A DNA stretch of 6,827 nucleotides, taken from IMG/VR virus record IMGVR_UViG_2671180984_000008; one strand, given 5' to 3'. Below are positions 1 through 3,000 of this stretch, piece by piece (the stretch's first letter is position 1; the number at the start of each line of letters is the position of its first letter). Origin of the DNA: a virus. Its lineage: Duplodnaviria; Heunggongvirae; Uroviricota; Caudoviricetes. The position numbers are program-made.

Positions 1-3000
1 GGTTACAGGCTAAAAAAACTCTATTACATTGCAGTCAGCATGTTTACTACACAAATACAATTCAGAGCATAAAAACTACTCGGCGGCAGGTTATTGAGAC
101 TCATCAATGACATGTAAAAAACGCCCATTATTGGTGTCAAGTTTCCCCAAAGTTATTCAAAAAGTCAATATTATGCCGTTAATATGTTGCCATCCGTGGC
201 AATCATGGCGCTAACGTGTGATCGCATTCAAAATGTTGTCTGCGATTGACTCTTCCTTGTGGCATTGCACAACCAGAGCGTCATACAGCGGCTTAACAGT
301 GCGTGACCAGGTGGGTTGGGTAAGGTTTGGGATTAGCATCGTCACAGCGCGATATGCGGCGCTTGCTGGCATTCTTGAATAACCGACGCCTTTACATCTT
401 CCGCACTCTTTCTCAGCAACTATCCCCCACTGCTCTGTTTTGGCTATATCAACCGCACGGCCTGTACCGTGGCAATCTCTGCATCTTGCGCCCGGCGTAG
501 CGGCACTACGGCAATAATCCGCATAAGCGAATGTTGCGAGCACTTGCAGTACCTTTGCCTTAGTATTTCCTTCGAGCTTTGCCACACCACGGTATTTCCC
601 CGATACCTTGTGTGCAAATTGCATCAGATAGTTGATAGCCTTTTGTTTGTCGTTCTGGCTGAGTTCATGCTTACCGCAGAATGCAGCCATTCCGAATCCG
701 GCTTGTGATTGCGCCATCCCCATAGCAGCCATCACATCAGTACCAGAAAGAGAGTCAGAAGCCGTAGCCCGTGGTGAATCGCTCATCATCGGGCTTTTTG
801 GCGAATGAAATTTAGCTACGCTTTCGAGTCTCATGCGCCTTCTCCCTGTACCTGAATCAATGTGAGGTTTCCGCAGAACACTGCGCCAGTATCGATATAC
901 ATCTGGTTGGCAAATTTGAGTGGTTTCACTGCTGGCGTATGACCAAAGATGAACGTGTCCGCGCCTTTGATTTCTTTCACGATCCCGTCTTGTGAGTTGC
1001 TGATTCGTTCGCGGTTCCAGATTACCTGCTGATGATCAACTGGCTTTCCAAACTCGTATTTATCACAAGGATAATCGGCGTGGCAGATGACATATTTTTT
1101 TCCTTTACTCACCAGTTCGATGATTAACGGAAGTTCATCTGCTTTATGGGCAAGAGCTTTAGCCAGAATTTCTTTGTCGTAATCGAGATTAAAGAACCAG
1201 CCACCGCCATTAAGCAGCCAGTGATTGACGTTTCCACGCTCTGATAAGCCATCAATCATCATTTGCTCATGGTTTCCACGTACAGCTCTGAACCAGGGGA
1301 ATGTGATTAATTCCAGGCATTCTACGTTCTCTGTACCGCGATCAACCAAATCGCCCACCGAGATAAGCAGGTCTTTTTTGGTGTCGAATCCTATCGTCTC
1401 CAGTTTTTTCATCAGGTTCGTGTAGCATCCGTGCAGATCGCCAACTACCCAAATATTTCGGTATTTGCTGCCATCAATTCTTTCGTAGATATTCATGCAA
1501 CCTCACTTCTGCTGTTTCGCAGTTTTTTAAGTTTCTGTTGATACTCCGCCTTGATGGCCCTGCACTCTTCGACAGTCCAGCGATAGCGGTTATGGTTTGA
1601 TTCGATTTCCTCTACTGCTTCCTGCCCGATGCGGCTAATCAGTTCGACGCGATACGGAACGAGATTTCCGCTTTTGTGCTGGTTGCACACCACGCATTGC
1701 TTGTGAATATTGCGTTCATCAAATCGGAGTTGAGGTGCCGCAGCAGTTGTCCGGTAATGTCCGGCATCCCACTGAGCAGACGTGAGCGTTCCGCACGAGA
1801 TACATGGTAAGTCGCGGTCTCTTTCTCTGATGAAGGCGTTTACGGCTTGTTGGGCTTGTTTAATCCAGTAACTGCGGGGCTTTAAGGCGAGTTTTCGAAT
1901 CTTAAGTTTATCTTTCTGTTTCTGCTCCTCTCGTCGTCGTTTCTTCTCTGCTGCTTTTTCCGCTTTTTCGCGTTCTTTACTTCGTCGTTCGAGTGCTATC
2001 TTGGTTCCACAAATCTCATTACACCAATATTGATTTTGATATTTTGGTATAAACCATTCATTGCAACATTTACATTTCCTTCGATAGATTCGCATAAGTG
2101 CTCCTTTCGTTGCCGGAAAAATCACCGTAATACTTATCTCGGGCTTCTTCAGCAACTAGTACCGCTAACTCCAGATCATCAAAGCATCCGAAGTGTTTAC
2201 TCTTGCCATGGAATCCTAGCCTAACATTCCATTTTTTCTGTCGTTTGTGCCAAGTAACCCCTCTGCAACCTGATTTGCTATTCTTTCGGATCCTTATATT
2301 TCTTGAATTTTCTATTGGCAGGCATTCTCTTAAATTTTCTGGCCTATTGTCGGTCCTAATTCCATTAACGTGGTCAATTTGACCAGCAGGCCAACGATTA
2401 TGAGTTATGTAAAAAACTAAGACGTGAGTTTTATATCTACGCCCATCTATCATGATCATTGAATAACCGTTGGAATCAAAAGTTCCAGCAACACTATTTA
2501 ATGCTATCCTTCCCTGAGTGGGAACTTTCCATCTAAATACCCCGGTAGATTTATCGAAACTTAGTAACTCAAATATCCTTTTAACAGTTAAATCTTCTCT
2601 TTTACGGTTACATCGTCTTCGCGCTGGTTTAGCCATCGCCTTCTTCCTCCGTAATGGTTTTCTGAATTTGGCCACCTGAACAGAGCTCACCAAAGCTATG
2701 GATGTCGGTATTTCCACAATACCAAGATGGCGAAAATAACTGCATGATAAGCCTCAGGGAAAAGGGAAGACACTACCCCCGATAATTCAGAAACAAATCG
2801 AAATACATGAACTAAAGAAAAAACCACAACAAACAGAAATAGAAATAGAAATAGAAATAGAAATAGAAATAGAAATAGAAATAGAAATAGAAATATTAAA
2901 ACAGACCACCACATTCCTGATGTCATACTCACTAAACAATTTTTCGACAACATGGTAGCTCATAGAACGTTATCGTGTAGACACCCTCTGCTACGTATTC

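Follow-up and report, generated by a model that had tools for sequence, protein, structure and literature searches.

An open reading frame (ORF) for an HNH endonuclease that begins at the start codon of ninG (rap), with ninG starting again close to its end, raises the question whether a homing endonuclease gene (HEG) has invaded and split its host gene. This arrangement is present in a stretch of 6,827 nucleotides (nt) from the IMG/VR record IMGVR_UViG_2671180984_000008, referred to as the window throughout; all coordinates are positions in this window, and the genes of the cassette described below are on the minus strand. The window is the nin-Q segment of a lambdoid E. coli prophage and is 99-100% identical to chromosomal prophages of E. 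coli of the enterohaemorrhagic (EHEC) type, such as strain E2865, in which the two ORFs carry the RefSeq labels "HNH endonuclease" and "recombination protein NinG". From the sequence comparisons presented here, it appears probable, by no means certain, that a free-standing cassette of the homing endonuclease type and of foreign origin is lodged in the 5' end of ninG.

A foreign cassette in place of the ninG 5' end

Mapped against uninterrupted ninG genes of lambdoid phages, as the initial annotation had recommended, the borders of the cassette are found at 2608/2607 and 2015/2014 (Table 1). At the left border, ninG switches to foreign AT-rich sequence. The 42 nt ahead of this point (2649..2608) correspond to positions -10 to +32 of lambda ninG with 40 of 42 bases identical by blastn, and 41 of 42 are shared with HK544 and CEC15. 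Identity with lambda ends after ninG nt 29, "...CGATGTAA" (read by eye as CGA TGT AA, that is codon 9 plus two bases); codon 9 here is codon 10 in lambda numbering, the annotated ninG of lambda having one additional leading ATG. On the right side, 2011..1493 matches the rest of lambda ninG with 97.3% identity, and the match can be traced by eye back to the TGT at 2014. The net change compared to lambda is the loss of 61 nt of ninG and the gain of 593 nt (2607..2015). Between the displaced 61 nt and the sequence replacing them, identity is about 56-62% with a gap of two codons. The insertion after codon 9 that had been proposed initially is correct in so far as an in-frame fusion is located there, but 61 nt have been replaced by 593 nt and the event was not a pure insertion.

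The Shine-Dalgarno (SD) sequence GGAGG at 2650-2646 is positioned 9 nt ahead of the ATG (2636-2634) of the nuclease ORF. That this start codon and ribosome-binding site are those of ninG, followed by codons for MAKPARRRC, is in agreement with both the ORF coordinates and the alignment to lambda. The nuclease ORF terminates with TAA at 2072-2070, and the ATG of NinG is found at 2095-2093, 5 nt behind the sequence AAAGGAG (2107-2101). The coordinates confirm that the last 26 nt of the nuclease ORF overlap a fresh AAAGGAG-ATG.

The G+C content (GC) is 0.391 in the nuclease body and 0.296 in the new ninG 5' end, compared to 0.489 in the ninG 3' part and 0.524 in the resident island of 42 nt. Since values of 0.30-0.39 contrast with 0.49-0.52 in the flanks, the cassette is considered to be of foreign origin. 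This drop, together with Pfam and profile matches given below, bears out the abrupt switch to AT-rich sequence coding for HNH and AP2 motifs that had been noticed initially.

The junctions are identical in all carriers of the cassette. Where an intact ninF lies upstream, as in locus L007 and about 22 IMG/VR loci, the left border is unchanged, and the nuclease ORF overlaps the end of ninF exactly as ninG does in lambda. An imperfect direct repeat of 20/21 nt (AGACGATGTAACCGTAAAAG / AGAAGATTTAACTGTTAAAAG) spans the left junction (2578-2618, minus strand), its first 11 nt being resident ninG sequence. The repeat may be of chance origin, and a simple crossover at microhomology offers no explanation. 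A scan for promoters and terminators revealed nothing above chance.

Table 1. Features of the ninG cassette and genes in its neighbourhood
Feature	Position	Strand	Basis
Resident lambda-type sequence: last ninF bases, SD, ATG, ninG nt 1-29	2608..2649	minus	blastn to lambda
Heterologous AT-rich cassette, 593 nt, GC 0.378, in place of ninG nt 30-90 (61 nt)	2015..2607	minus	Alignments to lambda and HK544, composition
HNH-AP2 endonuclease ORF, 188 amino acids (aa), stop codon included	2070..2636	minus	ORF list, Pfam, phrog_99, RefSeq WP_001108084.1
Predicted HNH (His-Me finger) catalytic region, aa 68-107, motif IDHVNGIRTDNRPENLR	2316..2435	minus	Pfam HNH_3
Predicted AP2-type DNA-binding domain, aa 123-171	2124..2270	minus	Pfam AP2, family profile, AlphaFold2 model
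New SD AAAGGAG for restarted ninG, within the 3' end of the nuclease ORF	2101..2107	minus	Direct sequence reading
Heterologous ninG 5' end: ATG, codons 2-27, part of codon 28; GC 0.296	2015..2095	minus	
Chimeric full-length NinG/Rap ORF, 200 aa; codons 1-28 heterologous, lambda-type from codon 29	1493..2095	minus	
NinB	6594..6142	minus	
Dam-type methyltransferase	6145..5618	minus	
ninE	about 5614..5448	minus	Homology to lambda
AT-rich block including 601-aa ORF (3130..4935)	5393..2650	plus (ORF)	
NinI-type phosphatase	1496..831	minus	
Lambda-type Q	834..211	minus	

A complete NinG with an imported N-terminus

The restarted ORF matches the Pfam family NinG (PF05766) with an E-value of 3.5e-84 over residues 4-194 of 200, covering model positions 5-192 of 193, and constitutes a full-length NinG/Rap including the N-terminal Cys motif. 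A split of ninG into functional pieces, as assumed in the initial annotation, was not found: only nine codons remain upstream, the downstream ORF specifies the complete protein, and there are no two NinG polypeptides. Based on the junction alignments and the Pfam match, the gene is presented here as a replacement cassette accompanied by a complete NinG.

Over 28 aligned codons, the new N-terminus shares 17 of 28 amino acids and 62% of the nucleotides with lambda. The codon differences in this part change the amino acid in 11 cases and are silent in four. In the first Cys pair the spacing is CX2C, compared to CX4C in lambda, while lambda and the window agree in the second pair (CX3C) and in the distance from one pair to the other. 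The description of a ninG start of 28 codons that is AT-rich and diverged at the amino acid level was accurate, and so was the conserved spacing for the second Cys pair, but not for the first. The term "recoded" is misleading for a tract with 11 amino-acid-changing against four silent codon differences. NinG N-termini were compared after searching 1.84 billion representative proteins with NinG of the window, and the new N-terminus, RRKCKCC...WC..IC, follows the CKxC form of other natural NinG representatives. This form is found in the closest other NinG N-termini, for example those of P0022 (RRRCKCCGVFFEPKYHNQTWC) and P0027 (RRKCKVCNEWFVPQY); none of them is close enough to be the source. Because the differences are mostly amino-acid-changing and the CKxC form is present, the ninG 5' end is regarded as heterologous rather than as rewritten lambda sequence. 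It has the appearance of a naturally occurring 5' end from a distant ninG, co-transferred with the nuclease gene.

In all 51 IMG/VR loci that carry the new ninG 5' end and reach far enough upstream, it is linked to the nuclease gene, and the two therefore travel as one unit. Downstream, ninG is rejoined in frame at the conserved codons for CGTK. The carrier allele differs from the empty allele at the insertion point, where 61 nt are replaced, and any target situated within the displaced 61 nt would be lost from it. Most of the full-length matches among the best 150 NinG representatives begin directly at the Cys-rich N-terminus, with no HNH_3 or AP2 gene fused to them. A lambda-like NinG variant, P0106, has another N-terminus on the same downstream sequence and no nuclease gene, which indicates that mosaicism in the ninG 5' end also arises in the absence of a nuclease gene.

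An I-HmuI-like nuclease with a C-terminal AP2 domain

In Pfam searches, the nuclease ORF matched HNH_3 (PF13392) over aa 68-107 (E = 4.2e-11; 42.7 bits, cutoff 24.8) and AP2 over aa 123-171 with an E-value of 1.8e-4 and 22.2 bits, which is under the gathering cutoff of 33.3. In PHROGs it was assigned to phrog_99, "HNH endonuclease" (1.4e-71). Six residues that are invariant across relatives, D88, H89, N97, R98, N101, and N110, are all present in the window copy. A family profile built from the nuclease and its relatives matches the HNH homing endonuclease I-HmuI (PDB 1u3e) with 3.6e-7, and a profile of the same family also matches plant AP2 domains (WRI1, 1.7e-9; TEM1, 3e-5). The AlphaFold2 model of the protein has a pLDDT (predicted local distance difference test) value of 82.7, and I-HmuI (1u3e) is again the best match in the PDB according to Foldseek. 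The modelled AP2 unit consists of the strands E127-130, E135-142, and E145-152 followed by the helix H155-173, and it aligns to the AP2 domain of AtERF1 (1gcc) with a root mean square deviation of 1.2 Å over 51 columns. The HNH_3 score, the invariant residues, and both I-HmuI matches place the protein among the HNH or His-Me finger nucleases, and the C-terminal AP2 domain is supported by the family profile and the model, the single sequence scoring below the Pfam cutoff. As judged from profiles and model, the nuclease is an I-HmuI-like HNH protein with a C-terminal AP2 domain and belongs to a family whose proteins are regarded as homing endonucleases.

The leader of the nuclease consists of the resident ninG codons 1-9 (MAKPARRRC) fused in frame to the nuclease body. 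It is reflected in the number of residues ahead of the conserved N-terminal motif (L..LL.Y...TG.F.W), 16 here compared to about 1-5 in relatives. The alignments of more than 2,500 phage-encoded relatives, which are devoid of the MAKPARRRC leader, begin no earlier than residue 12-16 of the nuclease, residues 1-17 were modelled at low confidence, and the first internal Met does not occur before residue 59. A GTG further upstream, which would give an ORF of 215 aa starting at 2717, was rejected as a start: this stretch belongs to the module with the 601-aa ORF and is absent where ninF is intact. Since relatives align from residue 12-16, no earlier internal Met exists, and the GTG is missing in some contexts, the ninG ATG was taken as the start codon of the nuclease.

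Searches for intron RNA between 1900 and 2800 yielded no Rfam family, even at E <= 1. The nuclease gene is thus considered free-standing, no intron RNA being present in or around it. Nuclease and NinG are separate ORFs with their own stop and start codons, an organization that is neither that of an intron nor that of an intein.

Distribution of the cassette

The nuclease body of 508 nt was detected in 538 out of 5426 complete E. coli genomes, no genome having more than three copies; all copies are chromosomal and at least 99% identical, and RefSeq already labels the gene "HNH endonuclease" in these 538 genomes. Among phage records, the cassette is restricted to the Shiga toxin (Stx) 1 phages AU6Stx1 and SH2026Stx1, each with a RefSeq copy, i.e. 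four of 422 matching records. IMG/VR contains 57 near-identical copies and two distant relatives of the nuclease. When 5.8 billion proteins were searched with the nuclease using a word index, 99% copies, one fragment of 104 aa, and relatives with no more than 47% identity were obtained, with a gap between them.

For alignment of the whole cassette, 56 copies were used, 55 of them from other records. The 593 nt are almost invariant among these copies, while the attached ninG 3' parts represent 22 haplotypes. Some of these haplotypes match cassette-free alleles over about 519 nt: the one in L017 is the same as in L134 and L146, the one in L058 the same as in L195, and the one in L064 is within one difference of L161. 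From the window, the ninG 3' parts of L017, L058, and L064 are separated by 10-20 differences. Upstream of the cassette, an intact ninF (about 22 copies, e.g. PK8241), the module with the 601-aa ORF, or an IS30 remnant were found, and in O157:H7 genomes the module is truncated by the IS30 remnant. Downstream, ninH is present or absent and the type of Q differs. The empty site is present in lambda, HK544, CEC15, and more than 110 IMG/VR loci, so that the cassette is polymorphic for presence and absence. As a near-invariant cassette is combined with several upstream contexts and varied ninG 3' backgrounds, we conclude that it has a single recent origin and has spread between lambdoid prophages by recombination within the homologous ninF and ninG flanks.

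The cassette is intact in 55 of the 56 copies; the exception, L066, carries a deletion of 1 nt causing a frameshift. In two other loci, insertion sequences (IS), an IS2 and an element of the IS3 family, have entered the short overlap of nuclease and ninG independently of each other and separate or truncate both ORFs. These insertions are located at window-equivalent positions 2048-2054 in L005 (Z1323CEC0008) and 2101-2103 in L007 (PK8241).

A second HNH-AP2 gene was detected in ninF of E. coli CEC15 (positions 2144-2686 of locus L008) and also in B7A; it is present in 45 out of 5426 E. coli genomes. Its product of 168 aa belongs to the same family as the nuclease of the window (phrog_99, 3.4e-70; 32% identity), and the gene is likewise AT-rich (GC 0.353) and located about 70 nt ahead of the ninG start codon. 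In contrast to the cassette, it is a simple insertion of 543 nt after about codon 38 of ninF, the 3' remnant of which stays in place; it has its own start codon, ninG is untouched, and no ninG segment was imported. With a second HNH-AP2 lineage inserted nearby, the ninF-ninG junction has been invaded at least twice.

Homing or passive exchange

From these data, the following course of events can be envisaged. The donor may have been an AT-rich phage in which the nuclease gene was located just upstream of its own ninG and overlapped it. The founding left joint would have been illegitimate or based on microhomology, in frame either by chance or through selection for expression, and the right joint would have been formed at the conserved TGTGGAACCAAG (TGT GGA ACC AAG, encoding CGTK). 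In this arrangement, ninF together with the first 29 nt of ninG would border the cassette on the left and about 520 nt of ninG on the right, and empty lambda-type phages have sequences homologous to either flank. During lytic growth, with delayed-early transcription of nin, the enzyme would nick or cut the empty lambda-type ninG at a position inside or close to the 61 nt that are absent from the carrier. Repair from a co-resident or co-infecting phage with the cassette would copy the cassette in, while the imported ninG 5' end would keep NinG intact and remove the presumed target.

We infer cleavage and homing in this scheme from sequence features, and an active nuclease that drives the spread of the cassette today is possible, yet doubtful. 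No firmer is the wider proposal that the cassette may be homing actively in temperate lambdoid phages, including Stx phages, by cutting the lambda-type ninG 5' region upon induction or co-infection, with repair from the carrier, the ninF-ninG junction as a recurrent landing site of two or more independent HNH-AP2 lineages, and the resulting breaks driving mosaic exchange in the nin-Q region, close to the antiterminator gene Q and the stx genes downstream.

Several observations weigh against active homing. Single nucleotide polymorphisms (SNPs) in the nuclease ORF among the 56 copies are amino-acid-changing in 12 cases and silent in ten, and singleton substitutions at invariant HNH positions (N97T, N101S, P83T) occur in IMG/VR copies (within L010-L066). 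This pattern suggests only moderate or weak constraint on the nuclease in prophages, and some of the prophage copies may be inactive. Among 89 cassette-free ninG haplotypes, too, there is little diversity in the 5' two-thirds and much at the 3' end, and because empty alleles show such a similar pattern, SNPs beside the cassette cannot be used as co-conversion tracts; low diversity near the cassette was dropped as evidence on these grounds. In at least one genome, that of strain E2865, a query including the flanks found two places and the nuclease body one. The second place is probably an unconverted lambda-type ninG beside the carrier; such co-residence carries little weight, however, because nin genes are repressed in lysogens. 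Clonal EHEC lineages (O157:H7, O111, and others) make up much of the count of 538 genomes. Moreover, lambdoid prophages exchange modules freely, and the occurrence of one cassette on several backgrounds needs no process driven by a nuclease. Finally, the donor of the cassette was not found in any search: GTDB representative genomes yielded one unrelated match (39%); the NinG peptide YQNQYWC, searched as a degenerate DNA pattern, turned up only in the same contigs and in three chance matches; the new NinG N-terminus reached at best 63-66% identity in tblastn searches of phage records, with the shared IALERRS included; and a 40-aa protein query was uninformative, retrieving only fragments of the same allele.

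Such data could also result from a passive mosaic module, the nuclease gene with the foreign ninG 5' end, that arrived once by illegitimate recombination in the manner of morons and other lambdoid mosaic joints and was subsequently distributed by general recombination (Red, RecA, or Rap) and clonal expansion of EHEC, the nuclease being inactive, decaying, or irrelevant. This explanation, which we regard as somewhat unlikely although it has to be taken seriously, draws on the weak constraint with its 12 to ten SNPs, the singletons at invariant positions and the frameshift, on the apparently unconverted ninG in E2865, and on the similar distribution of diversity in empty ninG alleles. The nin region typically shows mosaic joints where genes meet: the module with the 601-aa ORF also has its right border at roughly the same point, about 10 nt ahead of the ninG ATG, the HNH insert of CEC15 ends about 40 nt further upstream, and the N-terminal variant P0106 exists without a nuclease gene. 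It is less easily reconciled with 55 intact copies out of 56, with near-zero diversity of the cassette on flanks diverged by up to 5%, and with the catalytic residues kept in the window copy. In addition, in-frame capture of a start combined with a working start for ninG corresponds to the needs of a persistent selfish gene, and a second HNH-AP2 gene is located at nearly the same site.

Alternatively, the nuclease could have been domesticated as a weapon or exclusion system and be kept for cutting the DNA of rival lambdoid phages or prophages with a lambda-type ninG 5' end or another target. Carriers would thereby gain an advantage in mixed infections (marker exclusion), irrespective of any copying of the gene itself. 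Homing-type nucleases and their domains have reportedly been co-opted in conflicts between phages and between phages and satellites (PMC10448857), the ORF is intact in nearly all copies, and ninG of the carrier differs from the common allele over 61 nt. Among the PADLOC defence models, the sole match was marginal (ZorE, E = 0.007 over 24 residues), and from the sequence a weapon is inseparable from homing, the two being not mutually exclusive. We regard a role as a weapon as improbable.

That a fusion of MAKPARRRC with HNH followed by a separate NinG is an old and widespread architecture from which lambda ninG was derived, the case named initially as refuting an insertion, has in its favour only the high copy number in EHEC genomes and is of negligible probability, being contradicted by a monomorphic nuclease body (at least 99% identity everywhere), the foreign base composition, the absence of the cassette from the other lambdoid ninG loci fetched (lambda, HK544, CEC15, and at least 120 IMG/VR stretches) and its presence in only four of 422 matching phage records, relatives of the nuclease without the ninG leader, and the NinG representatives described above, most of which start at the Cys-rich N-terminus.

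Relation to known systems

The HNH-AP2 homing endonuclease family was reportedly described by Magnani et al. in 2004. As in the window, its members have an HNH domain followed by a C-terminal AP2 domain and are free-standing beside or inside a conserved phage gene. The best profile match of the nuclease (3.6e-7) and the best fold match of its nuclease half is I-HmuI of Bacillus phage SPO1, which nicks DNA site-specifically and promotes homing. The gene for I-HmuI resides in a group I intron, and the enzyme possesses DNA-binding modules other than AP2. In the window, by contrast, no intron is present, and identity to I-HmuI in the structural alignment is 17%.

In Aeromonas phage Aeh1, nrdA is reportedly truly split into two polypeptides that reassemble. 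The window differs in this respect, with nine codons upstream and a complete NinG obtained by way of an imported heterologous 5' end. The gene mobE within nrdA of Aeh1 is, according to Friedrich et al. 2007 as cited in PMC10448857, a free-standing HEG with the host function preserved. The location of an HEG inside a conserved phage gene whose function is kept is common to mobE and the cassette.

HNH and AP2 are combined in a homing endonuclease family that is known from phages, cyanobacteria, and protists and also includes the "IPA-HNH" genes of vibriophage ICP1 (PMC10448857). The ICP1 genes are divergent, whereas the window copy matches canonical HNH_3 and has its closest relatives at no more than 47% identity. 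Gene 31 of the P22-like Salmonella phage epsilon34 is described as an HNH gene with a resident N-terminus captured in frame (PMC2629481), the same start-site capture as in the window. Different from the window, it is part of the early left operon, represents another HNH lineage akin to Lactobacillus phage genes, and is not reported to be accompanied by a restart of the interrupted gene. For ShiLan, an in-frame homing insertion in a phage methylase is reported (PMC11855218). It resembles the cassette as a nuclease-bearing mobile insertion in frame with the host gene, but the element of ShiLan lies within one continuous host ORF, whereas the host gene in the window restarts as a separate ORF.

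Literature searches revealed no paper on an HNH-AP2 element in ninG or ninF, nor any study of such an element in lambdoid or Stx prophages. The HNH-AP2 family and the class of free-standing HEGs are already known, while no description was found for the ninG arrangement itself. The assumption that the ninG case is uncharacterised holds to this extent, although the gene is annotated generically in RefSeq.

Within prophages of EHEC lineages, among them Stx1 phages, the cassette occupies the nin-Q region, and Q and stx follow it a few kilobases downstream. An active nuclease would make it a convenient and genetically tractable example of homing without an intron in temperate phages, with the empty site present in lambda itself. 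A selfish gene would in this case have taken over the start signals of its host gene and have paid with an imported replacement of the 5' end, and break-induced recombination in nin-Q could reshuffle regulators of late genes among these phages. If it is inactive, only a well-resolved mosaic joint would remain.

The neighbouring genes

The AT-rich module next to the cassette (2650-5393, GC 0.344) replaces most of ninF. Its 601-aa ORF, on the plus strand at 3130-4935, gave no match to Pfam or PADLOC; the sole family detected was phrog_9230 with unknown function. The module was found next to a cassette-free ninG in none of 123 IMG/VR loci, and the cassette also occurs without the module. A single insertion comprising both was considered and rejected, since the cassette is present together with intact ninF where the module is missing.

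The hexanucleotide AAATAG is repeated in 10.8 copies (2831-2895) in the interval that separates the nuclease gene from the divergent 601-aa ORF. With four to 13 copies in other loci, this tract is hypervariable, and it is situated in a possible promoter region.

The ninG stop codon overlaps the ATG of the gene for the NinI-type phosphatase in the window (1488-1496), and ninH is missing. In lambda, HK544, and AU6Stx1, unlike in the window, ninH is situated between ninG and the next gene.

Compared to E2865 and every other fetched locus spanning this point, the 601-aa ORF of the window has an in-frame deletion of 48 nt (16 aa, TCKHKIDEIYEKRFSE) at about 4765-4773, which is located between direct repeats of 9 nt (TCAGAAACA).

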